Of a stretch of DNA of 62,542 nt, positions 254 to 35,472 are shown one piece after another. The first letter of the stretch is position 1, and every line of letters begins with the position of its first letter. This DNA comes from an uncultured Bifidobacteriaceae bacterium (GTDB lineage: Bacteria > Verrucomicrobiota > Verrucomicrobiia > Limisphaerales > UBA11358): the NCBI GenBank assembly GCA_964413165.1, contig CAYPSF010000004.1, forward strand, positions 1-62,542, in the 5' to 3' direction. A program made the position numbers and the translations under genes. The notes beneath the pieces were generated by a model that ran no database searches, was not told where the DNA came from, and saw nothing but the letters and a program-made list of their open reading frames with translations.

Positions 254-3200
254 ATGACATTCGAATCGTTTGAGATTCCGATGCAAACAATCTTCAATTC
301 CTTCAAAGGATTTCTTTTCGGCGATGGTCTTATCGGTCAAATGAAACCTCAAGCAATGGCGCCAGTCGCCACTTTTCATTCCGGCAATGTCGGGCTCGTA
401 GTGGTGATCACGCTGTTGGTGTTCTCCAATTTCTGTTTGGCACAGGGGCAAGACGGTACGGTTGTGGCATGGGGGAGAAACGATTTGGGACAAGCTGATT
501 ATCCATTTAGCTTAACGAACGCAGTATCCATTGGCATCGGCTTTCAGAACAGCTTGGCCGCCCGGACCGATGGATCGGTTGTCGGATGGGGTGATATTTT
601 CGGCCAAGGGTTAATTCCTTCGGGCGCAACAAATGTAGTAAATGCAAAGCTTGGACAATCCTGGAATGTGGCATTAAGAATGACGGGACAACCATTTCCT
701 GGCCAACATGACAAGGAGGCGATACCAATATCCCTCCAAATTTGTCAAAGGTTGCTGAAATTGCCGCCAATGCAGAATTATTCCTGGCACGTTTGACCAA
801 CGGTTCCTTGGTTTCGTGGGGAACTGGCTTTAACGGCACTGGTTTTATTCCGGTAATACCACCATCGGGATTGACCGATGTGGTATCCATTGCTACCGGC
901 CAGGCTCATTCCGCCGCTCTCCGAAGTGATGGCACGGTGGTTGCCTGGGGTGACAATACCGTTGGTCAAACCAACGTTCCGGATGGTCTGACTAATGTTG
1001 TCGCTCTCTGTGCCGGTCAACATTTCACTTTGGCCCTGAAATTCGACGGTTCGGTAGCGGCATGGGGTGACAACGGTTCCGGTCAAACCAATGTTCCTGC
1101 TGCGGCGACTGATGTCGTGGCTATTGCTGCGGGCGCTTGGCATGGTTTGGTCCTGAGGAGTGATGGCGTCATCGTTGGATGGGGATCAGATTTATTTGGG
1201 GCTTACGATGTTCCGTCCGGTGTTACCAATGTCATTGATATTGCAGCCGGGGGGTGGAATGGCGCAGCAATAATGAACAGTGCTGTGTCGTTTGTTGGCA
1301 GGCAATCCTCCCGCCGTTTCGCCTACAGCGGTAGCTCCGTTATCTTGAAATCCGGGATCATCGGCATCGCACCATCAGCATTTCAATGGCAACGCGCCGG
1401 AACGAATATCAACGGGGCAAAAGGATCTCTGCTTTGCTTCACCAATGTGCAATCGATTGATGCCGGAAACTATTGTGTCATAGTCACAAACATCTATGGA
1501 ACCACGACCAGTTCGAACTTGGATCTGGTGGTAACGAATTCTTCCCCAGTCATTCTTAATCAACCGACAAACCAGACCGCGCCTCCTTTTACCGGTTCAT
1601 TTTTTGCCGTGAGTGTTGTCGGCTCCATGCCCTTCAGCTACCAATGGCGGTGCAATGGGACGAATATCATTGGAGCCACCAACGGAGTATTGAATCTCTC
1701 AAACGTGGAACCAGCCAATGACGGATATTATAGTGTTGTGGTCTCCAATAGTTATGGAATAACCACCAGTACGGACGCGTATTTGCATGTGTTGGATGCG
1801 GCGGATGCATTAAACGCGACTAACGTTACCTGGACTTCCGCCGGAGATGTGCCGTGGTTTGCAGAAACCAGTATCGTGCATGATGGCGCAATTGCCCTGC
1901 AAAGCGGAGCTCTCGCGGTCGGCCAGCAGTCGGTGCTTCAGACAACCGCCAATGGTCCCGGCACGTTGACGTTTTGGTGGAATGTCAGCTCCAAGACTGA
2001 AAGTAATTATCTCAATTTCTCGGTAAACGATGTGGAACAGGCCCGGATTTCCGGGGTCGTCATCGGTGGATTCTATGGCTGGGAACAGCAGACTGTTTAT
2101 ATCGGTGCCGGGCCCCAGATATTGCAATGGGCGTACATCAAGACCGACCCGGGTGTCAGTATCAGCGGGCGCGATTCCGGGTGGCTGGATGAAGTCAGCT
2201 TAGTTCCCGGTGGCGCGCCGCCGGTTATGATCCTGAATCCGACAAACCAGGTGGTGTTGCTGGGGTCGAATGCAACTTTGAATGCAGCCGCATTGGGCAC
2301 ACCGCCTTTGAATTATCAATGGCAGCTCAATCTCACCAATCTGGATGGCGCAACCAACGCGTCTTTGGTTCTGACGAACGTGCAGCTCACCGACGAGGGC
2401 AATTATACGTTGGTGGTCAGCAACGCGTTTGGAATTACCAACACTGCCACCGCTTATCTGAATGTCGTGGATTTCAACGAATCACTAAACGCAACCAACT
2501 TGACCTGGAGCATCGGAGGTGATCAACCGTGGTTTCCAGAAACGAGCATCACACATGATGGCATCGCCGCTTTACAGAGCGGAGCCATCGCCGGCAACCA
2601 TCAGTCCACCGCGTAGATCGCCGTCGACGGGCCGGCAACCTTGAGTTTCTGGTGGAAGGTTTCGTCGGAGACAAACAATGACTACGTACACTTTTCGGCG
2701 GATGGCGCGGAGCAGTTTCGGATTTCCGGCGCGGTCAGCTGGAAACAGGTAACTTATTCCGTCGCGCCAGGGACTCATGCCTTGGCCTGGAGCTATTCCA
2801 AGGATGGCGCCATCAATCAGGATGCGGATGCCGCATGGCTCGATCAGGTCAGCTATGTTCCTGGAGCTACGGCACCCGTAATTATAACCAATCCTGTCAG
2901 TCAAACATCACAGGGTGGTCAGACTATAAGCTTCCAGATTACTGCGTTCGGTACACCGCCGCTAAGTTATCAATGGCAGTTCAACGGCACCAATATTCTT
3001 GATGCAACCAATGCGATACTGAATGTGACCAACATTCCGTGGAACAGTGAAGGCAACTACAGTGTCGTTGTCAGCAATGCCTACGGTGTCGTGGTCAGTT
3101 CCAACGCCACATTGATATTGCCCCGTTCCCAGGTGGTTACGTGGGCTCGTTATAATGTTTATGGCCAGACTAACGTGCCGGTCTGGTTGACTAATGCCGT

Positions 3201-5337
3201 GACCATTGCCGCCGGTCCCCAAGATGATCTGGCGCTCCGGAGCGATGGGACAGTCGTGGGATGGGGAGAAAATGACTACGGGGAATCGACCCCACCTGCA
3301 GGATTAAGCAACGTGGTGGCCATTGCTGCCGGAGGAAGCTATTTCAGTCTGGCCTTGAAAAGAGATGGGACGGCAACCGTCTGGGGACTTGGCAGTGGTA
3401 ATACTTTAAAGGTGCCGATTGGTTTGAGCAATATTGTGGCGATTGCCGCAGGCGGCATGCATTGCCTCGCGTTGACGAGTTCGCACAACATCGTGGCGTG
3501 GGGAAACGGCTTCAATGGTGAAACCAATGTGCCAACCGGCTTGGCCAATGTGACGGAGGTTGCTGCCGGATCGGCCCACAGCCTTGCGCTTAGAAGCGAC
3601 GGGACAGTCGTTGCCTGGGGATACAATTATAACGGCGAGACGAATGTGCCTTCCGGGCTGACCAATGTCGTGGCCATTGCCGCCGGATGGTCCCACAACC
3701 TGGCACTTTTGAGCAATGGCGGAGTGGTTGCCTGGGGTGATAATAACGAAGGTCAGACCAATGTGCCGGCAGGGCTAAGCAATGTGGTGGCAATCGGAGC
3801 AGGGAGTTACCATTGTCTGGCCATCAAAAAGGATGGGAAAGTCATTGCGTGGGGGAGGAATGACGCCGGCCAGACGAATGTGCCGGCAGGCTTGAATGGG
3901 GTTGTGGCCGTGACCGGCGGGATGGAGCACAGCCTGGCGCTCGAAGAAGGGGGGCCATTGATCATTGCCAGCCAGCCGCCCAGCCAATCCGCCGTCGCTG
4001 GAACAAGCACCTACATCAGTGCAGTCGCGTTAGGCGCGCAACCGGTCGGGTACCAGTGGCAATTTAACGGGACGAACCTGACTGGTGCCACCAATGCATT
4101 GTTAAATTTCGCCAATGTGCAACCAGCCAATGCTGGAATTTACTGCCTGGTGGCAAGCAACAGCTTTGGAACCGTGACCAGCTCCAATGCAATTTTGACG
4201 GTTCTGACCTTCCCGCCTGCCATCACCACCCAACCCACCAACCAGACAGTTTTATTGGGGTCAAACACCACTTTTGCTGTTATGGGCACAGGAACCGCGC
4301 CTTTAACCTATCAATGGCAGTTTAATGGAACCAATATCGACTGGGCGACGAATGCCTCGTTGTTTTTGACCAACGTCCAGTTCGCGAATCAAGGCAGCTA
4401 TCAGGTCGTGGTCAGCAATGACTATGGGAGCGTCATCAGCTCCAATGTGGTATTGACCGTGATCAGCCTGGCCATGGCTTTGGACGCTCCGGATCTGGTC
4501 TGGACCAATGGTGGCAACGTGGCGTGGTTTGCCGAAACCAGAGTAACGCATGACGGCGTGGCCGCAGCGCAAAGCGGTCTGATCGCCAACGGCCAGACGT
4601 CAACGCTGCAGACTTCCGTTACCGGGCCCGGCACCTTGACTTTTTGGTGGCGCTTTTCATCAAATTTCATCCTGGATTCCTTGATTTTTTATGTCAATGG
4701 CACTCAACAAGCCGCTTCAAGCTCAGCCTGGCAGCAAAAAACTTTTTACCTTGGCAGTGGAACGCAAACCTTGCTGTGGACGTATTCGCGGAGCTCTTCT
4801 GCCTTCGGCAACATGAGCACCGGGTGGGTGGACCAGGTCGTCTATACCCCGGGAGGCACCCCTCCCATCGTCACTCTCGTGCCCGTCAGCAAATCCCTGA
4901 TGACTCGGGCCCGGGCAAGTTTTTCGTCCTCGGCGACAGGAACTCCCCCCATCAGCTATCAGTGGCAATTTAACGGGACCGACCTGGTCGGGGCCACCAA
5001 TAGTTCCCTGGTAATCGCCAATGTTCAACCGGTCAACTCCGGGACTTATGCGCTTACGATTACCAACTCCTACGGCAGATTCGTCACCAACGTCATGTTG
5101 TTTGTCCAGCCTTTCGTCCTTAACACCAGTTCGAACAATCCATGGCTGACCGCCAGCGGATTGCTGATGCAGGTTGACGGTGTCCTGACGCCAAACGGGC
5201 TGGTCATCTACGCATCCACCAATTTGACCAGCTGGCTGCCGATTTTGACGAATCCGCCGGTTACGGGTTCGGTGCGGGTTCTGGATTCATCGGCAACCAA
5301 TCTGCCATTCAGATTTTATCGGGCTGGCGAGCAATAA
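254..5337 (+). pseudogene. Disrupted large secreted protein with RCC1-like repeats, Ig-like domains, repeated beta-sandwich modules and a C-terminal module
   Basis: ORFs 254-796, 742-2616 and 2641-5337 join into one architecture. The lesions are an apparent 1-nt deletion at about 677-680 (LR|NDGT), an in-frame TGA at 709-711 and an in-frame TAG at 2614-2616. Repeats read ALRSDGTVVAWGxNxxGQTNVP and YQWQFNGTN. Confidence 0.8.
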
Positions 5338-10998: not shown

Positions 10999-12129
10999 AT
11001 GTTGAAACGGACGGCCCTTTTTGCCGCACACCAACGGCTCGGCGGCAAACTCATCGAGTTTGGCGGCTGGGAAATGCCCGTGCAATACACCAGCATCACG
11101 GACGAACACCTCGCCGTCCGCAGCGCGGCCGGCATTTTCGACATCTCCCACATGGGCGAAGTTACTGTCAGCGGCGCCGCCGCGGCGGAATTCCTCAATA
11201 TCATTCTTACCAACGACGTCCGGAAACTTGAACCCGGTGAGGGCCAGTACACCCTGATGGGCAACGAACGCGGTGGGGTGATTGACGACCTTTACGCCTA
11301 CCGGCTTTGTTACGAAGTGTTTCTGCTCATCATCAACGCCTCGCGCATTGAGCCCGATGTGGCCTGGTTGCAGGGCCAGGCTGCCCGGTTTGCCCGGTCG
11401 GGCGAATTGCGGTTGACCGACGCCTCGCACAATTACGCCGCCGTGGCCGTGCAGGGGCCCCGCGTGAAGGATTTTATCGAGGCCGGCATTCCCGGCGCTG
11501 CGGTTTCCGGCATGCGGGTGGACCGCGTAACCGGGTTGAAGAAAAATCAGATCGCCGGTTTTCCTTTTGCCAAAGCAGGCGTGCTCGTCTCCCGCACGGG
11601 TTACACCGGCGAGGACGGATTTGAAATCATGGGTTCGGACGAAGCCATCCAGCAGGTCTGGGACAAGCTGCTGGCCATCGGGCAGCCGGCGGGCATCAAG
11701 CCTTGCGGCCTGGGTGCGCGCGATACGTTGCGCACGGAAGTCTGCTATCCGCTGTATGGCCATGAACTCGACGAAAACACGACACCCATCGAAGCCGGTC
11801 TGGGCTTTTTTGTTTCCCTCGACAAGGGCGAATTCAATGGCCGCGCAGTTTTGGCGGCACAGAAGGCGGAGGGAACAAACAAGCAGCTGGTGGCGTTCAA
11901 GATGACCGACAAATGCGCGCCGCCCCGGCCGCAATATCCCCTCTGGGCGGGCGAAAAAAGCGTCGGTATTGTCACCAGCGGCACGCAAAGCCCGTCGATG
12001 GGCATCGGCATCGGGATGGGCTATGCGCCGCCGGAATCGGCGAAAGCCGGCGCGAATATTGAAATTGAGATCCGTGGCAAGCGCTTTGCGGCGGTCGTGG
12101 TGCCCAAGCCGATCTACAAAAAAAGTTAA
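10999..12129 (+). CDS. gcvT: Glycine cleavage system aminomethyltransferase T
   Basis: LKRTALFAAH, FGGWEMPVQY, FDISHMGE, SRTGYTGEDGFE, GLGARDTLRTE. Confidence 0.95.
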   Translation: MLKRTALFAAHQRLGGKLIEFGGWEMPVQYTSITDEHLAVRSAAGIFDISHMGEVTVSGAAAAEFLNIILTNDVRKLEPGEGQYTLMGNERGGVIDDLYAYRLCYEVFLLIINASRIEPDVAWLQGQAARFARSGELRLTDASHNYAAVAVQGPRVKDFIEAGIPGAAVSGMRVDRVTGLKKNQIAGFPFAKAGVLVSRTGYTGEDGFEIMGSDEAIQQVWDKLLAIGQPAGIKPCGLGARDTLRTEVCYPLYGHELDENTTPIEAGLGFFVSLDKGEFNGRAVLAAQKAEGTNKQLVAFKMTDKCAPPRPQYPLWAGEKSVGIVTSGTQSPSMGIGIGMGYAPPESAKAGANIEIEIRGKRFAAVVVPKPIYKKS

Positions 12130-12211
12130 ACCGTTGAATTGTTAAACCGTTGAATCGGGTGCGATTCTTGCGTTGCCACGGTTTAACGATTCACCCTTTC
12201 AACGGTTTGAC
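12125..12211. repeat. Octamer-array inverted repeat, copy 1
   Basis: GTTAAACC GTTGAATT GTTAAACC GTTGAATC - 23 nt - GGTTTAAC GATTCACC CTTTCAAC GGTTTGAC. Contains the gcvT stop. Confidence 0.85.
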
Positions 12212-12661: not shown

Positions 12662-12901
12662 GTGAAAGTCCGCCTGTTTATCAAACCGTACTGCCCCTGG
12701 TGCGACAAGGCCATGCACTGGCTTGATGGCCAAGACATCCAATACGAAACCCTGGATGTCATTGCGGATGAAAAGGCGTATGCGGAGATGGTCCGGTTGT
12801 CCGGACAGGAACTCGCGCCGGTCATCGACGTGGATGGTAAAATCCTGGCCGATTTCGGCCCGGAAGAATTGGCAAAATTCTGGAAAACGTTAAACTGTTG
12901 A
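12662..12901 (+). CDS. Glutaredoxin family protein
   Basis: 79 aa, CPWC active site, cis-Pro motif LAPVIDVDG. Confidence 0.85.
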   Translation: MKVRLFIKPYCPWCDKAMHWLDGQDIQYETLDVIADEKAYAEMVRLSGQELAPVIDVDGKILADFGPEELAKFWKTLNC

Positions 12902-13005
12902 ATGGTTGAAACGTTAAATCGCAATATGATAACAGCACCCGGGAAACAATCCGACCAGCGAGCACCGTTGGCCGGTTCAACGGTTCAACGATTCACCAAT
13001 TCACG
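12889..13005. repeat. Octamer-array inverted repeat, copy 2 (overlaps grx stop and lipA 5' end)
   Basis: GTTAAACT GTTGAATG GTTGAAAC GTTAAATC ... GGTTCAAC GGTTCAAC GATTCACC AATTCACG. Confidence 0.8.
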
Positions 13006-13873
13006 CCCCCGGCTCCCCGATTGGCTGCGTATTACGCTGCCCACGTCGGACAGTTTCGCGCGCACGCGCAGCCTGCTGGACGAGCTGAAGCTGCACACGG
13101 TCTGCGAAAGCGCCAAGTGCCCGAATCATTGGGAATGCTGGAGCAAGGGCACGGCCACGTTCATGATTGCCGGCGACCGCTGCACCCGCGCCTGCGGTTT
13201 TTGCGCGGTGTCCACGGCCAAACCGTTGCCGCTCGAGGCGGACGAACCCCGGCGTGTGGCCGAGGCTACCCGGCGGATGAAGCTGCGGCATATCGTCATC
13301 ACCGCCGTCGCGCGCGACGATCTGGTGGACGGCGGGGCGGAACATTTCCGGCAAACGGTCGAGGCCGTGCGCGAGTTGAATCTAGGCATTGTCATTGAGG
13401 TGCTCGTGCCGGATTTCAATGACAGCGAAGTTGCCATTGACGCGGTGCTGGCGGCGAACCCTCACATTTTCAACCACAATCTCGAAACGGTGCGGCGGCT
13501 GACGCCGGACGTGCGCCACCGTGCCACGTACGACCGTTCGTTGCACGTGTTGCAGACGGTGAAGGCGAAGCGCGGCGACACAATTTACACCAAATCCGGC
13601 ATGATGCTCGGTCTGGGCGAGTCGGAAGCGGAAGTTCTGGTGGCAATGGAGGATTTGCGCCGGGCCGGGTGCGACATCCTCACCCTGGGCCAGTATCTCC
13701 AGCCGACGTTAAAGCATTTGCCGGTGGTGGAATTTATTTCCCCCGCGAAATTCGACGAATTGGGCCGGCGGGCCGGGGAGCTGGGCTTTGTCCACGTGGC
13801 CAGCGGGCCGATGGTGCGAAGTTCCTACCACGCCGACGAGTTCAACCTGCCGTCAATGTCCCGGCAGGGATAA
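12902..13873 (+). CDS. lipA: Lipoyl synthase
   Basis: CESAKCPNHWEC motif, radical-SAM CTRACGFC, NHNLETV, GQYLQP, RSSYHA. Exact start uncertain (12902 or 12926). Confidence 0.95.
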   Translation: MVETLNRNMITAPGKQSDQRAPLAGSTVQRFTNSRPRLPDWLRITLPTSDSFARTRSLLDELKLHTVCESAKCPNHWECWSKGTATFMIAGDRCTRACGFCAVSTAKPLPLEADEPRRVAEATRRMKLRHIVITAVARDDLVDGGAEHFRQTVEAVRELNLGIVIEVLVPDFNDSEVAIDAVLAANPHIFNHNLETVRRLTPDVRHRATYDRSLHVLQTVKAKRGDTIYTKSGMMLGLGESEAEVLVAMEDLRRAGCDILTLGQYLQPTLKHLPVVEFISPAKFDELGRRAGELGFVHVASGPMVRSSYHADEFNLPSMSRQG

Positions 13874-16155: not shown

Positions 16156-16806
16156 ATGAATAATATAACTACCCGGCAATTATTGGAATCCCTGCATTGG
16201 CGGTACGCCACCAAAGTCTTTGATGCGGCCAAAAAAATCCCCGCCGATCTCTGGCAAACCCTGGAGCAGGCGCTCGTGCTTACCCCGACTTCTTATGGTC
16301 TGCAGCCGTACCGTTTTCTCGTCATCAACAACCCGGCCAAACGCACCGAACTGCTGCCGCATTCGTGGAACCAAAAGCAGGTCGTGGACGCTTCCCATTT
16401 TGTCGTATTCGCCGCCCGCACCAAAATGACCCCGGCCGACGTGACCAAACTCATCCAACGCACCAGCGACGTCCGAAAAATCCCCGCCGAGTCGCTGGGC
16501 TTTTACCGTGACATGATGCTCGGCGACATCGTTAACGGTCCGCGAGGCAAGGCCGCCCATGAATGGGCGACGCGTCAGACCTACATCGCCCTAGGCAACC
16601 TGATGACTTGCGCCGCCGTGCTGGGCGTGGACGCCTGCCCGATGGAAGGGCTGGTGCCGGCCGAATACGACCGTGTGTTGGGCTTGACCGCCAGTGACTA
16701 CGCGACGGTGGTGGCCTGCGCGCTGGGTTATCGCTCCGCCAGCGACAAATACGCCGGCCTGACAAAAGTGCGTTATGAAACCAGTGAGCTCGTCCAACAA
16801 GTTTGA
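16156..16806 (+). CDS. NAD(P)H-dependent nitroreductase (NfsB-like)
   Basis: WRYATKVFD, LTPTSYGLQPY, LGVDACPMEG, ACALGYR. Confidence 0.9.
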   Translation: MNNITTRQLLESLHWRYATKVFDAAKKIPADLWQTLEQALVLTPTSYGLQPYRFLVINNPAKRTELLPHSWNQKQVVDASHFVVFAARTKMTPADVTKLIQRTSDVRKIPAESLGFYRDMMLGDIVNGPRGKAAHEWATRQTYIALGNLMTCAAVLGVDACPMEGLVPAEYDRVLGLTASDYATVVACALGYRSASDKYAGLTKVRYETSELVQQV

Positions 16807-28689: not shown

Positions 28690-31600
28690 ATGGCGACGAT
28701 TGATTCATTGACCATCGACAGGCGGCCTGGCCGGCTGGGACGGGTGGTCTGGTTGGCCGCTTTGATTATCTTGTTACTGGGCATCCTTTTGATGGCGGCC
28801 TATTTGCTGGTGACCAGTTCCGGTTTCATCAAACGTGTTATCATACCCCGCATTGGCGCCGCGATTCATGCCGACATCACCGTTACCGAGATCTCCGTAC
28901 ATCCCTTCAGCAAAATCCTGATCCGGGGCCTGAAGGTGCAGGCCAAAGACCAGGAGCCGCTCCTCGCCGCGTCGGAAGTCAGCGCCAGCTACAGTTTGTG
29001 GAGCATCCTCCGCGGCAATCCCCGCATAGCCGAAATCGTGCTCGTGTCGCCAACCGTCATTGTGGTCGACAACCCCGACGGAACCAGCAACCTGGACGCG
29101 TTGTCGCAGGGCGCGGAGAAAAAACCGGCCAAATCTTCACGGCCGGCTGGGTCTGCCAAAACCATGCACATCGAGGTCGGGAAGGTCACGGTCAGCAACG
29201 CCACCTTGCGGAAAATTAAAAACTACCCTGGCAACCGGCGTGATTTCATGGAATTGGGGAACGTGAACCTGACGCTGGCCAACCTGAAAAACGGGCAGGC
29301 CGGGACCTTCCAGTTGGGCGCCCTCCTGCAAATTGACAGCAATCCGCCCAACGGCCGGTCGGGACATTTGCAGGCCGCCTTGAATGGCAACTTGAATTTT
29401 TCGCTGAGCGCCGATTTGCGGCCCGCGCCCGTTACCGGCCAGACCCGCCTGGATATTTCTCGCGCGGACGGCGGGTTCAGCGATTTTTCCCGCCTCAGCG
29501 CCGTGTTGGATTGTGACGTGACCCCGGAGGAAATCAAACAGGTGACGCTGCATTTTCAAAGGGCCGGCGCCCCGCTGGGTGAACTGGCTGTCAGCGGTCC
29601 GCTGAACATGCAAAAGATGGAGGGCCGGTTGAAGGTGGAACTTCGGGGCATCGACCGGCGATTGCTGAACCTGGCCGGCACCGAGGATGGAATTGATTTC
29701 GGCACCACGACCGTCAGCGCCAGCAGCCAGATTGACTTTACCAAGGCCGGCTCAGTCATCGACGTCACTGGCCGGTTGGAAGCCGGCAATGTGCAATTGA
29801 CCCGTGCGGGGCAGACTACCCCGACGGTCAATCTCATTGGCGCCTGTGCCGTCACTGTGGACACCCCGGCCCGGACGGCGCAACTGCGGAGCCTGAGCCT
29901 CACCGGCACACAGAACGGCCGGTCGTTGTTGACCGCGCACCTGTCCCAGCCCATGAATTTTGCCTGGGGCAGCCAGGCGGGCGGAGTGGGGGACTCTGCG
30001 CTCGACCTGGCCGTCACGGGATTGAACCTGACGGATTGGAAACCGTTCCTCGGCGAGGCCGCCGCGGGCAACCTGGATGCCTCCATGAAAGTGTCATCGC
30101 AGCAGGGCGGACAGCAATTGGTGTTCAATCTGAATTCGCAATTTGGAAATCCCGCGGCCCCCGGCGGCTTGTCCGGCACTTTCTCGGCCAACGGCCGCGT
30201 CGGCCAGAAACAACACACTCAAGCCTTCACCGGCAAACTGGTGCTCGCCGGCCTTACGGGAGCGGCAGGCAAAAACCGGTTCCGCAATTTCGGCGGTACG
30301 ATCGACTTCGACGTGGACAAAAGCGTGGAGCAAATTCAAATCAACAAAATCAGCGGCAAAGTGACGGGCGACGGGGCTGGCGGCGGCAGTTTTGAGGTTT
30401 CCGGCAAATACAATTCCGCGCGCAGTTCGGCGCAATTGACCGCCGCCCTGTCGGGCTTCAATCAAAACGGACTGCGACCGTTCCTGGAACCGCTCTTTGC
30501 CGGCAAAACCCTCACGTCCATCACGGTCAACGGCAACGCCGCCGTGCAGTACGATCCCAAGGCCAGTTCCACCATTAATGCCTCCTTGCAGGTGGCCAAT
30601 CTGGTCGTGAACGACCCGCAACGGCAGCTTCCGGCCACGCCGCTGGCCGCCAGCCTGCAGGTTGACACCACCGTGAAGACGGCGTCGGCCGACATCCGCC
30701 GGTTTCAAATCTCCCTCTCGCCCACCAAACGCGCGAAGAACGAGCTCCAATTTCAAGGCCAGGTGGACTATACCCAGACCAACGCGGTTCGCGGCAACCT
30801 CAAACTCACGGCCGATTCCCTCGATGTGACCAGTTACTACGATATCTTCGCCGGTGGCCCGAAAAGCAGCAATTCGCCGGCCGCCGACCAGCCGGGCGCA
30901 GCCGTCGGACGGGAACCGACGGCGATGATCCTGCCGTTGAAAAACTTTACCGTGACGGCCGACATCGGACGGTTTTATCTGCACGAAACTGAGATCACCG
31001 GCTGGCAGACAACGGTGGCCGCAGATGGCGGCCACGTGTTGATCAAGCCATTCAAGCTCGCGCTCAACGGTGCGCCGGTCAACGGCACGGCAGACCTGAA
31101 CCTGGGCGTGACCGGTTACCGTTACGATGTGGTCTTTGGCGCCGACCGCGTCCCGGTTGCTCCGCTGGTGAATACTTTTATGCCCGACCGTAAAGGTCAG
31201 ATGGGCGGGACTTTGACGGCGAACGCCCAGCTCAAGGGTGCGGGCATCACCGGCCCGAGCCTGCAAAAGAACCTCGCCGGCCAGTTCACGGTCGGCATCA
31301 CCAACCTGAACCTGGCGGTCGTTGACGCCCACAGCCCCATCCTCAAACTCGTCATCAATGTGGTGGCCATCATCCCCCAGATCCTGGTCAATCCCCAGAG
31401 CGCCATCACCTCGCTGATGGGGCAGGTGACCGGGTCGGGCGGCGGCCTGATGGACGCGCTGAAAGAATCGCCCATCCAGATCATCAACGCGCAAGTCAAG
31501 GCGGGGGGCGGACGGATTGATTTACAACAGGCCTCGGTACAGAGCACGGTCTTCAAGGCGGATGCCCAGGGCGGCATTATCCTGGCTCAGGTGCTGACCA

Positions 31601-31887
31601 ACTCCGCCATCAACATCCCGGTGGCCATTTCCTTGAGTCCGGCCGCAGCGCAACAGATCAATCTTACTTCTGCCGCCGCCAAATCTGGCGACGGGTTTGT
31701 TCCCATGCCGCAATTTCTGACCGTGAAAGGCACGATTGGCGTGCCCAAGCCGGAGATCAAAGAAACGGCTCTGGCTGGCCTGATGATCAAGTCGATCGGG
31801 ACCGGTCTCCTTAAAACGGCCACCAATACCACGTCCAACGTAGGGCATTTGCTGAACGACCTGCTGAAGACCGTCAAACCCAAATAA
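28690..31887 (+). CDS. AsmA family protein
   Basis: N-terminal membrane anchor, DGTSNLD, a long beta-rich body, and C-terminal [11 protein letters not shown]. Confidence 0.8.
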
Positions 31888-31923
31888 GCCGGTTCCCGCA
31901 TCGCTTGCAGCGATTGGTTAACC
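31888..31923 (-). mobile_element. Truncated attC-like site (left half)
   Basis: Minus strand GGTTAAC-CAATC-GCTGCAA, with the SnoaL gene's TAA inside the inverse core. Confidence 0.6.
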
Positions 31924-32328
31924 ATTTCGGGTCTCACGCTCGATTATCTTCACTCCTTCACTCCAATCCGCATAAACCTGCCAAACCTCGATCTTCTCTT
32001 CCGAAACAGTCGCTCTCCATGCGGCTGGCATTGTGATGCGAGCTTCGGGCACCGGACCACGCACGCCGCTAAACGTCCCGGTTGCATGGCCGAAGATCGC
32101 CACGGTGCCGCCACTGCTGATAAAAGTATCGGCCTCAATCTGGAAATCCGGAAACATTTTGAAGTATGCCGCCCACGCAGTGAGCATCGCATCGCGACCG
32201 GAAACCGACCTGTCCTGAGAATCTACGAAAACGTGATCGTCAGACATGAGCGCCCGGAGATCATCAATGGAGTGTCCGTTTATCGCCCGGATGAACGCCT
32301 GGCATACTGCAATGCAATCGGTTGACAT
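31918..32328 (-). CDS. SnoaL-like / NTF2 family protein (cassette gene)
   Basis: AFIRAINGHSIDDLRALMSDDHVFVDS...GRDAMLTAWAAYFKMFPD...WQVYAD. Confidence 0.85.
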   Translation of the reverse strand: MSTDCIAVCQAFIRAINGHSIDDLRALMSDDHVFVDSQDRSVSGRDAMLTAWAAYFKMFPDFQIEADTFISSGGTVAIFGHATGTFSGVRGPVPEARITMPAAWRATVSEEKIEVWQVYADWSEGVKIIERETRNG

Positions 32329-32336
32329 AGGCTGAT

Positions 32337-32452
32337 GGCTAACGCTCAGCCACCGCCGGGCCGCGAGCGTCGGACGCAAGTTTGTGGTTCAATCGATTCA
32401 TAATCATTAATCGCAGAATTTATCGGCGGTTCGCTGCGGCGGCTTCTTGGCG
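32337..32452 (-). mobile_element. Degenerate attC-like site
   Basis: Minus strand AAG-AAGCC-GCCGCAG-CGAACCGCCG ... CGGCGGT-GG-CTGAGC-GTTAGCC. The inverse core is mutated and the right spacer is missing. Confidence 0.55.
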
Positions 32453-32937
32453 GCATGCTCCTCATCGTCTTCCTCGTGCTCAAATTCCTCCTGCTCCGCT
32501 GGGCTGAGGGTAACCTTTTCCTTGCGACGCACCGCCGACCAAAACGTAAGCCAACCATAAAGCACGAGCGGCACACCAACTCCAAAACTGCTCAGTCCAA
32601 CCACAAAGCTCGGTCCGCTGTATTCTTTCTGTCGCTCTACGAATACGTTGTAGAGCACCCATCCGATGATTGCGACTCCGGCCACGAGACACACCAGGCC
32701 AAAAAACGCAAGCGGCCCACCGAACAGCAGATTGAAGATTCGGCTGAATAACGTTGTGCCATCATTTGTGTGATAAAAGTCGATCAGCTTCAATATCCCG
32801 AGCGGAACAAGAAGGAAAATGTAGACAATGCCCAACACCGCACCCACCGTCTGATTGGCAAGTTCGCCCGCCACGATTGGCACACCCAGATAAACCAGCA
32901 AGTAAACAGCTGCCCGAATTGATGTCTTCAAGTTCAT
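32407..32937 (-). CDS. Hypothetical membrane protein (cassette gene)
   Basis: About four hydrophobic segments, with a tail (KKPPQRTA) read through the attC-like site. Confidence 0.7.
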   Translation of the reverse strand: MNLKTSIRAAVYLLVYLGVPIVAGELANQTVGAVLGIVYIFLLVPLGILKLIDFYHTNDGTTLFSRIFNLLFGGPLAFFGLVCLVAGVAIIGWVLYNVFVERQKEYSGPSFVVGLSSFGVGVPLVLYGWLTFWSAVRRKEKVTLSPAEQEEFEHEEDDEEHAAKKPPQRTADKFCD

Positions 32938-32951
32938 CGCCAGAAAGTGTC

Positions 32952-33083
32952 ATCTAACCTTCAGATCTCAGGTGCACGGGAACTGTCCTGTCCTGCTGCA
33001 TAACTTCGGCAACGCAGGAAGCCGCCATCCCACGTTGCCCGCTGGTAACTTGAAAAGCAGATGATCTGCTGGATTTGTTAGCC
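32952..33083 (-). mobile_element. attC-like site, 132 bp
   Basis: Minus strand GGCTAAC (holds the upstream stop) ... CAGATC/GATCTG stem ... GTTAGAT core, 14 nt before the next ATG. Confidence 0.6.
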
Positions 33084-33317
33084 CACATGGCTCTCATCCT
33101 GTTTCAATCTCTCATCTTTTCGCTTTTGCCGCTTGCTCATAAAAAACTGAAAGGTTGCTCTGAAAATCACCGCCAGGACAATTACAACAAACATCATCCC
33201 CACGCCGCCACCAGTAGTTTTCGGCGTCCGAAAGATCAGGTTGGTGACAATGCCAGCCAGGATGATGCAAATTAGAAACACCCCCGAACTAGACCACCAT
33301 ATGGGACGATGTGTCAT
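33078..33317 (-). CDS. Small two-helix membrane protein (cassette gene)
   Basis: Two hydrophobic segments, with the stop inside GGCTAAC. Confidence 0.6.
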   Translation of the reverse strand: MTHRPIWWSSSGVFLICIILAGIVTNLIFRTPKTTGGGVGMMFVVIVLAVIFRATFQFFMSKRQKRKDERLKQDESHVG

Positions 33318-33346
33318 GCTTGCGTGTGAGATCAGGCGTGCATTTG

Positions 33347-33655
33347 TCAGACGGCAACTTTATGAGCGGGGCTCTTCCTTTCAAGAATAATACCACCGAT
33401 CCCGAAAACAAAAATCGCGGCGCTGCCACAGGCGACCACAATCCAACCCTTGCCTTTTCTGGCAATGCGATCAAGCCCCGCCTGGTGTGCCTGCTTTACG
33501 GCAGGCGTGTCCATCTCTGCCAGCATTCGCCGAACGTCTTCGACTTTGGCGAGAAACTCCTTCTCCTGGCGAATCTCGATAATAGAAAGTCCAAGTAGCA
33601 GTAAGGCCAGAACAGTGATGATGATGTATAGAATGCGCATAGTCACCTGACTCAT
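33347..33655 (-). CDS. Hypothetical two-helix membrane protein
   Basis: Hydrophobic termini around a charged helical loop. Same orientation as the neighbouring cassette genes. Confidence 0.6.
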   Translation of the reverse strand: MSQVTMRILYIIITVLALLLLGLSIIEIRQEKEFLAKVEDVRRMLAEMDTPAVKQAHQAGLDRIARKGKGWIVVACGSAAIFVFGIGGIILERKSPAHKVAV

Positions 33656-33749
33656 AGTGGGTTGACCATTTGCGGCCCGGCGCCGTTACATTACGAAGGT
33701 AGATTATCGTTGTAAACTGCATTTGTCCAGCTTACTCAGCCCGGGGTAG

Positions 33750-33826
33750 TCCTGATTTGATGCAGCATTGAGCCTCCGGCTCAACTATCGAGCCAGAGGC
33801 TCGACTTTACAGCAGGCAAATCAGGA
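33750..33826. repeat. REP doublet (REPIN-like) hairpin
   Basis: Inverted copies of TGYA-x-x-RTYGAGCCTCYGGCTC (33761-33782 and 33790-33811), flanked by TCCTGATTTG / CAAATCAGGA. Confidence 0.7.
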
Positions 33827-34002
33827 CAGCAGCCAGCCCGGATGCCTGCCGTCATGTGGCTTTGCGCGGTGTCAATCCGTGGCTAAAGATTGAGAGTTCG
33901 CAGAGATCGCCCCTCCGATTCCTCATCGGGGCTGGCTGAAGCCGGGACACCGAACGGGCGGGTCTTGCCAGTCGGCGGGGGTTTCCCGTAACGTCTGGCA
34001 CC

Positions 34003-35472
34003 ATGAACCTGGCCGCGGCGTTTGCCGCTTCGGTGCAAAAGCAGCCGGACAAGATCGCCCTGTACTGGGGCGACAGCGAATTCTCTTACTCCACGCTGTT
34101 CGCCCAATCCGAGGCTGTGGCCGCGGCGTTGACCGGCAAATACGGCGTGAAGCCCGGCGATCGGGTCGGGCTCTGGCTCAAAAATCGGCCGGAATTCGTC
34201 CCGGCGGTTTTCGGGGTCCTCGGCGCCGACGCCGTGCTCGTGCCCATCAATAATTTTCTCAAGCCGGACGAAGTAAATTACATCCTGAAGGATGCCGGCA
34301 TCGACGTGCTCATCACCGACGAAGAACTGGCCGTCCACGCCCCCGCGTTGATCGAGGCAAGGCCGCAGCTTAAAATCTTCAGAGTCGAAGACTTTCAGGC
34401 AGACAATCCTGAAATCGTAAATTGCGAGCGAAGCGAGCAGGACCTGGCAGTCATCATCTACACGTCCGGCACGACGGGCCGGCCGAAGGGGGCGATGCTG
34501 TCGCATGGCAACCTGCTGCACAACGTGGAGAGCTGCCGGATTGTACTGGAGACAGTGCGCGAGGACCGCATGGCGGTGTTGCTGCCGTTGTTCCACAGTT
34601 ACATGCTGACGGTGGGGATTTTCCTGCCGCTGATCATCGGCGGGACGATAGTGCTGGTGAAGTCGCTGAACCAGCCCCGGCAGATTTTGCAGGAAATGTG
34701 TGCGCGCCAGGCGACCATCCTGCCGGCCATCCCGCCATTTTACCGCACACTGGCCGGTTTGCCCGCATCCATCAAATTACCGTTTCGCCTTTGCATCAGC
34801 GGTTCGGCCCCGTTGCCGGTGCAGGTGTTGCAGGATTTTGAAGCGAAATTCGGCATCCCGCTGTTGGAAGGATACGGGTTGAGCGAGGCCAGCCCGGTGG
34901 TATCCAAGAACCCGATTCATGGCGTGCGCAAGCCGGGTTCGATTGGCCGGCCAATTCCGAACGTGGAGTTGAGCGCGCAGGATGAAGCGGGCAAAATCCT
35001 TGGGGTGGGTGAGATTGGCGAGCTTTGTGTGCGGGGTGGCAACGTGATGCAGGGCTATTGGAACCATCCGGAAGAAACGGCGCAGGCGCTGCGCAACGGC
35101 TGGTTGCTGACCGGCGACATCGGTTATCACGATGCAGACGGTTATTTTTACATCACGGACCGCAAAAAAGACATGTTGCTCGTGAATGGAATCAACGTCT
35201 ATCCGAGGGAGATCGAGGAGGTGATCTACCAGTATCCCGGGGTAAAGGAAGCGGCGGTGATTGGGGTGCCTGACGCGCGCAAAGGGGAGCTACCGGTGGC
35301 ATTTGTGGCGATGGAAGGGCCAAATCCCGAGGAAAAAGCCCTGTTGCAACATCTTCGTAACAAGCTGGCCGACTATAAAGTGCCCAAAAAGGTGGTTTTC
35401 AGGCCGGCTTTGCCTCGAAATGCCGCGGGTAAAATCCTCAAAACCACCCTCCGCCAACAGGACTTGGACTGA
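34003..35472 (+). CDS. fadD: Long-chain fatty acid-CoA ligase
   Basis: IYTSGTTGRPKGAMLSH, EGYGLSEASP, WLLTGDIG, DRKKDML, AAGKILK. The substrate is not determinable from sequence alone. Confidence 0.85.
   Translation: MNLAAAFAASVQKQPDKIALYWGDSEFSYSTLFAQSEAVAAALTGKYGVKPGDRVGLWLKNRPEFVPAVFGVLGADAVLVPINNFLKPDEVNYILKDAGIDVLITDEELAVHAPALIEARPQLKIFRVEDFQADNPEIVNCERSEQDLAVIIYTSGTTGRPKGAMLSHGNLLHNVESCRIVLETVREDRMAVLLPLFHSYMLTVGIFLPLIIGGTIVLVKSLNQPRQILQEMCARQATILPAIPPFYRTLAGLPASIKLPFRLCISGSAPLPVQVLQDFEAKFGIPLLEGYGLSEASPVVSKNPIHGVRKPGSIGRPIPNVELSAQDEAGKILGVGEIGELCVRGGNVMQGYWNHPEETAQALRNGWLLTGDIGYHDADGYFYITDRKKDMLLVNGINVYPREIEEVIYQYPGVKEAAVIGVPDARKGELPVAFVAMEGPNPEEKALLQHLRNKLADYKVPKKVVFRPALPRNAAGKILKTTLRQQDLD

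Follow-up and report, generated by a model that had tools for sequence, protein, structure and literature searches.

A probable relic integron cassette array between asmA and fadD in a Verrucomicrobiota contig

Contig CAYPSF010000004.1 of a soil verrucomicrobium, a stretch of 62,542 nt that we call the window, carries ~1.8 kb of DNA between asmA and fadD (31885–33651) that we regard as very probably a relic, immobile integron cassette array. The region holds four small minus-strand genes, here designated TM102, TM79, TM176 and SnoaL, each of which originated as an integron cassette, and remnants of attC recombination sites accompany them. No integron integrase gene (intI) is found in the window, and the locus varies among relatives. 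An initial annotation, made from the sequence of the window, had described the region as a decayed cluster of attC sites lacking integron integrase (CALIN) and as a stranded array in a phylum whose integrons are little studied. Comparison contigs fetched for the analysis are numbered with L and metagenomes with X.

Four co-oriented minus-strand open reading frames (ORFs) were confirmed between the two flanking genes, and the lower GC content reported for them was real, with 0.49–0.55 over the array region compared with ~0.60 in both flanks. All four genes are also present in contigs that are 99.5–100% identical to the window. Every motif quoted in the initial annotation was recovered at its position or within 1 nt of it. 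On the minus strand, GGTTAAC (31923→31917), GGCTAAC (33083→33077) and GTCTGAC (33352→33346) hold the stop codons of SnoaL, TM79 and TM102, respectively, while GTTAGCC (32343→32337) precedes the SnoaL ATG by 8 nt and GTTAGAT (32958→32952) precedes the TM176 ATG by 14 nt; GCTGCAA, GCCGCAG and CTGAGC also occur in the region. An R′ core lies a few nucleotides upstream of SnoaL (GTTAGCC), TM176 (GTTAGAT) and the probable start of TM102 (GTCAGGT), the R′ of TM79 having been deleted, and three of the four stops lie inside an R″ core, that of TM176 having decayed to GCCAAGA. The same units occur elsewhere: SnoaL in L026, TM79 in L110 and L111, and TM102 in L108 and L113. The TM176 unit is found in L105 with both R′ and R″, though outside any array.

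We then asked whether attC sites could be detected with a model specific to the lineage. From the fetched integron loci we collected 91 hairpin-forming R″..R′ sites that occupy the strand opposite IntI and lie upstream of it, and a covariance model (R1; 124 positions, 23 pairs) was built from 60 aligned, independent attCs of Verrucomicrobial arrays. R1 recovers every array site in the integron loci with E-values of 1e-9 to 1e-18. When both strands of the whole 62.5-kb window were searched with filters off, the top match was 32440→32344 on the minus strand (28.3 bits, E 6.9e-6), corresponding to model positions 13–109 (L″-loop-L′) and to the spacer between TM176 and SnoaL; the search for attC that the initial annotation had proposed thus returned its best match in a cassette spacer and on the right strand. 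The match recurs in the 99.5%-identical contig L015, and at E ≤ 1 nothing was found in the relatives that share the asmA locus apart from L007. A second R1 match in the window (4062–4107, 18.6 bits, E 0.004; ATTTAAC...GTTAAAT, 46 nt) falls inside an 898-aa RCC1/Ig-like repeat ORF (2641–5337) and is most likely a false positive, which calibrates the trust to be placed in weaker evidence.

Two further comparisons were made. A profile of the attC 5′ arm (nhmmer) gave its two best window matches on the minus strand, the top one at 31920–31906, at the 3′ end of SnoaL, and the other at 32441–32423, at that of TM176. We also took the best local alignment (Smith–Waterman) of each site to 106 real attCs and compared it with 200 dinucleotide shuffles. 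The z-score was 3.8 for the sequence downstream of SnoaL (p ~0.015), 6.0 for the TM176/SnoaL spacer and 4.5 for the TM79/TM176 spacer (p ≤ 0.005), and neither the 29-nt TM102/TM79 spacer (p 0.7) nor the 280 nt upstream of TM102 showed significant attC similarity. Rfam 15, which has no attC family, matched nothing in the region, and a repeat search found no repeated spacer family within it.

SnoaL (cassette D; 31918–32328, minus strand) encodes a 136-aa SnoaL/NTF2-like protein (Pfam SnoaL_2, 8.5e-16). It is 87% identical at the amino acid level and 88% at the nucleotide level to a gene of integron L026 that belongs to the cassette array and sits on the strand opposite intI, 5 kb upstream. Nucleotide homology is limited to 31923–32345 of the window: it starts at a shared GTTAGCC, upstream of which the sequences are unrelated, and ends one base before the GGTTAAC of the window. 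In L026, an attC (E 4e-5) ends at the GTTAGCC directly upstream of SnoaL. The near-complementary GTTAGCC and GGTTAAC that had been taken for the ends of this cassette are therefore the two cores that bound the homology. The dN/dS between the two copies is 0.18, and SnoaL is under purifying selection. The suggestion that the array is being domesticated is consistent with this value and with the intact ORFs.

Only part of the attC of the SnoaL cassette is present (31885–31923, minus strand). It consists of R″ GGTTAAC, the spacer and L″ (GGTTAACCAATCGCTGCA, 31923→31906), followed by ~18 nt of unmatched sequence up to the asmA stop codon (31885–31887). Within it, TAACCAATCGCTGCA downstream of SnoaL matches positions 4–18 of a real attC of L039 at 15/15 positions. 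An orthology between this terminal attC on the asmA side and the corresponding sequence in relatives, seen in an alignment by eye, was unsupported by MAFFT and was dropped. In rhizosphere metagenome X2, the 3′ end of SnoaL (31928–32005) carries 11 substitutions in 78 nt on a contig that is otherwise near-identical, and a 151-nt contig of X1 with the same variants begins exactly at 31922, in the R″ core; these variants may reflect gene conversion from another copy of the SnoaL cassette. Public gene calls of the same sequence miss the SnoaL ORF (L015:3590–3829, L016:1611–1880), one assembly having an antisense 79-aa ORF instead and another the last 89 codons alone, so that automated annotation hides this cassette.

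TM176 (cassette C; 32407–32937, minus strand) encodes a 176-aa membrane protein with four hydrophobic segments by hydropathy and an acidic tail. Its attC is eroded (32337–32451, minus strand): L″, the variable terminal structure and L′ are kept (32440→32344), as is R′ GTTAGCC, whereas R″ reads GCCAAGA (32451→32445) where GCCTAAC is expected. The 8-nt spacer between L′ and R′ is missing, so GTTAGCC abuts L′. Loss of R″ took the stop codon with it, and the ORF consequently runs 13 codons into the attC (32448→32410). This confirms the view that the C-terminal KKPPQRTA is translated attC, because the R1 alignment covers these codons and 28 of the 105 TM176 homologues end 13 residues earlier than the window copy. 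The commonest length in the family is 163 aa, ending in ...EEHAA; a second group is 176 aa long and has mutually unrelated tails after AA(K) (P0001–P0106), which suggests that members of this cassette family have repeatedly lost the R″ stop and been read through into attC. In L105, R′ GTTAGAC lies 13 nt upstream of the ATG of the homologue, and the ORF stops inside GTCTAAC, which is followed by CAGGGCGCTGCAGCGAACCGCCG; the window copy lacks that stop and reads KKPPQRTADKFCD through the attC. The minimum free energy (MFE) structure of the site keeps the L-box stem, and its R box cannot pair.

For TM79 (cassette B; 33078–33317, minus strand; 79 aa, two hydrophobic segments) we found 11 homologues. 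One of them, 68% identical, forms a single cassette of the 8.3-kb peat contig L110, which has 17 R1 attC matches; there, one attC (E 2.7e-14) ends 16 nt before the ATG and the next (E 2.7e-18) begins at the stop codon, inside GCCTAAC. L111 has the same cassettes beside a different neighbour, that is, they have been shuffled. The attC that follows TM79 in the window (32952–33083, minus strand; 132 nt) retains intact R″ GGCTAAC and R′ GTTAGAT, and its best Smith–Waterman partner is an attC of L007. Relative to the attC type of L007 and L110, the interior has a ~26-nt insertion after the spacer and a ~25-nt central deletion. Segments CTAACAAATC, GGCAACGTGGGATGGC and AAGGTTAGAT are in register with that type, and R″, the spacer AAATC, GGCAACGTGGGATGGC and ...CCTGAGATCTGAAGGTTAGAT are kept in the same register. 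R1 did not detect the TM79 site, which has no single-hairpin fold; when R-box pairing was forced, the structure comprised R box and spacer, a branched loop and an L-like stem of 6 bp.

TM102 (cassette A; 33347–33655, minus strand) encodes a membrane protein with two hydrophobic segments. Its longest ORF has 102 aa; the start is probably the ATG at 33640, which gives 97 aa, the length of most of its eight homologues. These lie in the cassette arrays L108 and L113 and share an identical cassette 5′ end. The start of the gene reads GTTAGGTGACTATGCGC in L113 and GTCAGGTGACTATGCGC in the window, and its end reads GCCACCTGACCAATCGCAGGC followed by a full attC in L113, compared with GCCGTCTGACAAATGCAC in the window. 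Since the L113 homologue ends in the same GTCTGAC before a full attC, this heptamer is the native R″ of the TM102 family and not the weakened core for which it had been taken. Direct comparison with L113 and L114 identified a decayed R′ core, GTCAGGT (33645–33651, minus strand), one change away from the GTTAGGT of L113; it lies 4 nt before the probable TM102 start and is the upstream boundary of the array. Between TM102 and TM79 there is an attC stub (33318–33352, minus strand) in which GTCTGAC, CAAATGCAC and GCCTGA are kept. The stub continues as GCCTGA-TCT-CACACGCAAGC-ATG, which is the attC 3′ end and the TM79 leader as in L110 without the R′ core. We aligned it by eye to L113 (ACCTGACCAATCGCAGGCAAGG...GCCTGAGCCCTGGCGTTAGTC) and L110 (GCCTGAGCTCTGGACGTTAGGCCACATCGCACGCGAGCATG). 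On this alignment, deletion of the attC centre and R′ has fused the two cassettes. The earlier description of the array as decayed is accurate: R″ is lost at one site, two have internal deletions and the last is truncated.

The closest relatives of the window organism are Limisphaerales-like metagenome-assembled genomes from peat, bog and soil, with AsmA ~68% identical, and they keep the gene order RNaseD-AsmA-(gap)-FadD-DUF5679-NDK-like-MutT-UDPGDH. The gap itself is a variable spot. It measures 466 bp in L009, ~0.9–1.3 kb in L006, L008, L010 and L011, ~6 kb in L001 and L004, and exceeds 8 kb in L005, L007 and L014. In the 14 syntenic relatives the locus contains none of the four cassette genes, so the conserved synteny that would have spoken for long-standing residents is lacking, and DNA homology between the window and the relatives resumes only at ~33935, in the fadD leader. 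Searches of the 62.5-kb window by tblastn with three integrase proteins (IntI1, L007 IntI and L026 IntI) detected no intI or intI fragment at E ≤ 0.1, as the initial annotation had stated.

An integrase does occupy the orthologous locus in one of the 14 relatives. L007 has a full-length IntI1 homologue (51% identity; 12771–13847, minus strand) 1.3 kb downstream of the asmA stop, together with a canonical attC. It scores 436 bits with the integron integrase model TIGR02249 (cut-off 265), compared with 433 bits for the integrase of L026, and the two IntI proteins are 92% identical. L007 also contains a second, 31-aa C-terminal fragment of intI (12012–12104) and blocks of short tandem repeats (ATGTTGAATGTTGGATG...; L007:11440–13847). 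Two transposase sequences interrupt its array, one an IS200-like Y1 type and the other a DDE fragment, and the same pair is present in L026.

In eight other relatives (L001, L003, L005, L006, L008, L009, L010 and L011) a 95-nt element (AAATTGACATGGACAGGCCGGAAAGCCGGGAATAGAGTCCAAATCGTGAACCGGGATAGACAAC...CTRG|TTAG; e.g. L006:12102–12198, minus strand) lies between fadD and a variable small gene. Its conservation stops exactly at GTTAG, and beyond that point the sequences stay alike only in genomes with a downstream gene in common. That gene is a different small minus-strand ORF depending on the species, and L009 has none. After the gene come AGCTAAC or AGCTGAC, a spacer and GCTGCAGC, together an attC 5′ arm; a conserved piece of 55 nt then abuts the asmA stop. 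Among 185,579 genomes, the 95-nt element is single-copy, occurs at this locus only and is never beside intI; Rfam gave only sub-threshold matches to it. Its role may be that of an attI-like junction, or it may be a regulatory or RNA element with no link to integrons. A search of the window for it was negative (p 0.6), so the upstream junction of the window is uninformative. The orientation of the window array is that of the single genes of the relatives, and we read the gap as a likely clade-wide cassette insertion spot, be it an attI, a secondary GTT site or something without a role in the insertions that it borders. One might go further and suppose that, across the Limisphaerales-like clade, it is a conserved docking site for cassettes without an integrase of its own; we put this forward tentatively and think it rather unlikely. 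If an IntI encoded elsewhere served the 95-nt element, that element would be a detached attI-like site, and the four genes of the window would be a multi-cassette version of the docking site, now eroded.

Two other features of the gap were observed in relatives. In nine of them CTCCTATGAGGGTTCATCGGTCAAG, part of the 55-nt piece (e.g. L006:11451–11510), adjoins the asmA stop; the same sequence encodes SYEGSSVK, the C-terminal residues of the TM102 homologue in the L108 array (L108:2859–2886). It represents either an attC interior common to both or what is left of a TM102-like gene. Within its 6.5-kb gap, L001 contains two extra fadD 5′ ends (12065–12157 and 16274–16447; 31 and 58 codons), 81% and 57% identical to FadD of the window, amid PEP-CTERM and glycoside hydrolase genes. 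This suggests repeated insertions, each with duplication of the fadD start, and the locus would then be a hotspot of a second kind as well.

Several results weigh against interpreting the region as a former array. Exact RYYYAAC occurs 0 times on the gene strand of the region compared with 1.8 expected from the whole window, and exact GTTRRRY 4 times compared with 1.5; with one mismatch the counts are 7 compared with 8.8 and 12 compared with 8.1, and core-motif counts by themselves are at chance level. Only one of the four window sites passes R1, and the TM102/TM79 stub was recognised by eye at a place where the alignment test gave p 0.7. As folding controls we used seven class 1 attCs from plasmid integrons (including aadA1, aacA4, catB2, blaVIM-1 and blaIMP-1), which form one imperfect hairpin with 22–32 symmetric pairs and a paired R box (5–6 pairs), the exception being IMP-1 with a branched loop. 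In a generic test, RYYYAAC...GTTRRRY pairs 50–150 nt apart were scored as bottom-strand hairpins against these controls. All 16 R″..R′ pairings in the region gave 0–4 symmetric pairs and 0 R-box pairs, which does not exceed the window background. Taken by itself, this test would point to no attC; it is too strict for eroded sites and was superseded by the lineage-specific model. None of the window sites outperforms shuffled sequence in folding, and none adopts a canonical hairpin. R-box pairs were absent from the TM176 and TM79 sites unless forced, at a cost of +3.8 and +2.5 kcal/mol, respectively, compared with 0–1.4 for four real sites, and the other two sites are fragments. Three TM176 homologues on long contigs lie in unrelated housekeeping neighbourhoods outside any array; at least two of them have attC remnants, so the TM176 cassette appears to be often stranded elsewhere too. 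The lack of intI applies to the window, and the rest of the genome may encode one. Finally, the cassettes of L007 read away from asmA, opposite to those of the window, which is thus not simply the L007 integron minus its integrase. Chance motif counts, the lack of canonical hairpins, folding z-scores that are not significant and the spurious R1 match in an unrelated ORF would all suit an ordinary small operon in which attC-like motifs arose by chance. We find this scarcely credible. The top R1 match (E 7e-6) lies in the spacer and on the strand where an attC was expected, each ORF has homologues with the same boundaries inside attC arrays, and the genes are absent from 14 of 14 syntenic relatives. 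The motifs amount to more than chance because they are in register with the ORF ends and are joined by the covariance-model match and by homologous cassettes with the same cores.

Given that the genes are former cassettes, the array might still be at work, with cassettes excised or inserted by an IntI acting in trans from elsewhere in the genome. Related Verrucomicrobia commonly encode IntI, three junctions have an intact R′ GTT core, and both cores persist in the TM79 attC along with an L-like stem (CAGATC/GATCTG), its R-box fold lying only +2.5 kcal/mol above the MFE; the different single genes that follow ...G|TTAG in the relatives also suggest recombination at a locus without adjacent intI. 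We nevertheless judge this improbable, since two attCs must fold for excision and no more than one here plausibly does: TM176 has lost its R″, only a stub is left between TM102 and TM79, and the SnoaL site is truncated. Contigs from four rhizosphere metagenomes contained no form or joint in which a cassette had been lost, which is weak evidence because contigs hide rare variants. A different history is that no integron ever resided at the locus and that the cassettes were inserted, singly or en bloc, through an integrase that used a secondary GTT (attG-like) site beside asmA, which would make the locus a docking hotspot and not a beheaded integron. Upstream of TM102 there is no intI pseudogene or attI-like remnant. 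The locus-specific 95-nt element of the relatives ends at G|TTAG with different genes after it and no intI beside it, the window array runs in the direction of the single-gene relatives and against that of the L007 integron, and CALINs are known to arise by insertion at secondary sites (PMC4889954). On the other hand, L007 shows that a complete integron can occupy the locus, four cassettes in a row are easier to obtain from an array fed through attI, and the window is entirely without the 95-nt element. Such an origin seems to us possible but doubtful.

A relic array of four formerly separate cassettes would account for the region as follows. Each ORF would have begun a few nucleotides after a GTTRRRY-type R′ and stopped inside an RYYYAAC-type R″, and the sites would then have eroded unequally: that between TM102 and TM79 was probably reduced to a ~35-nt stub, the TM79 site rearranged in its interior, the TM176 site deprived of its R″ and the SnoaL site cut at the asmA stop. 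Without two foldable attCs, the cassettes would be neither excised nor shuffled and would behave as ordinary fixed chromosomal genes. We infer this immobility and the order of the decay events, and the genes may continue to be expressed and to function. A single locus displays several successive stages of attC erosion, namely a rearranged interior, R″ loss with ORF extension, cassette fusion and terminal truncation, and its four intact ORFs are concrete examples of integron cargo turning into ordinary chromosomal genes. Tools that demand a detectable attC will undercount such relics. The comparison also assigns three small membrane-protein families to the integron cassette pool.

The array is flanked by the gene for a 1065-aa AsmA/DUF748 protein on the left (28690–31887, plus strand) and by that for an AMP-binding acyl-CoA ligase (FadD) on the right (34003–35472, plus strand). 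Pfam and NCBIfam matches to the three membrane proteins TM176, TM79 and TM102 were all sub-threshold, and PADLOC matched none of the four proteins to a defence system. Between the array and the conserved fadD leader there is a 280-nt lineage-specific spacer (33656–33935) with no similarity to attC, attI or intI and no match to any fetched locus. A promoter scan upstream of TM102 found no sigma-70-like site, the promoter and attI consensus of Verrucomicrobia not being established. The spacer contains a nested, near-perfect palindrome of 79 nt (33749–33827; GTCCTGATTTG...CAAATCAGGAC, with inner GAGCCTCCGGCTC/GAGCCAGAGGCTC). The palindromic sequence at 33749–33829, like that at 33701–33741, has no R″ or R′ cores, and the stretch 33740–33945 folds with a z-score of −4.3. 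In metagenome contigs the palindrome has a depth 4–5 times that of its flanks, other flanks join at 33764–33829 and assemblies break there; it looks like a multi-copy repeat of the repetitive extragenic palindrome (REP) or miniature inverted-repeat transposable element (MITE) kind.

Arrays such as this are a known kind of relic, in which captured genes become fixed chromosomal genes. IntegronFinder defines a CALIN by at least two model-detected attCs on one strand, < 4 kb apart, with no integrase within 4 kb, and the origins listed for CALINs are intI loss, rearrangement and secondary-site insertion (Cury et al, 2016; PMC4889954). The window resembles CALINs in its small, co-oriented, promoterless-looking ORFs with attC-derived sites between them, in having no intI within 28 kb on either side and in cargo unrelated to antibiotic resistance. 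It has no adjacent intI (TIGR02249/intI_Cterm) as a complete integron would, and there is no integrase within 4 kb. Unlike CALINs, it has one site detectable with R1 (E 6.9e-6), the three others being rearranged, truncated or a stub, and is decayed one step further. The term CALIN given to the region at the outset is accordingly valid in its evolutionary but not in its operational sense. The array proposed at the same time is supported, whereas the phylum is less of a blank than was assumed, Verrucomicrobia being already listed among the integron-bearing phyla (PMC4889954).

The sedentary arrays of peat and soil Verrucomicrobia (L027, L038, L039, L042, L053, L084 and L110) share with the window the attC family RYCTAAC-CAnGCGaTGcAGCcAACCGC...GCGGTGGCTcAtCTTGTTCTC-GTTAGRY, the TM79, TM102 and SnoaL families, and the placement of starts and stops relative to the cores. 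They differ from it in that their attCs are homogeneous and foldable, with lengths of 96–129 nt (E 1e-9 to 1e-18), and follow almost every ORF; intI is adjacent where the contig reaches that far. With class 1 mobile cassettes the window has in common the R″/R′ core consensus and the cassette logic, but no window site forms the single hairpin with a paired R box seen in the class 1 controls. The closest precedent is the Xanthomonas ilvD integron remnants. Gillings et al, 2005 reportedly described chromosomal integrons, and remnants of them, linked to ilvD in that genus. As at ilvD, where across the clade intI is intact in some genomes and arrays lack an integrase in others (PMC12444791), the asmA–fadD array occupies a fixed locus beside a housekeeping gene, and it has reached the same end state. 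The present case differs in its phylum, Verrucomicrobiota, and in its anchors, asmA and fadD; intI is present in 1 of 14 relatives and differently oriented, and most relatives have a single gene after the conserved G|TTAG junction rather than intI. With these differences, the Xanthomonas-type pattern of intact, beheaded and eroded states at a housekeeping-linked locus would extend to the Verrucomicrobiota of soil and peat.

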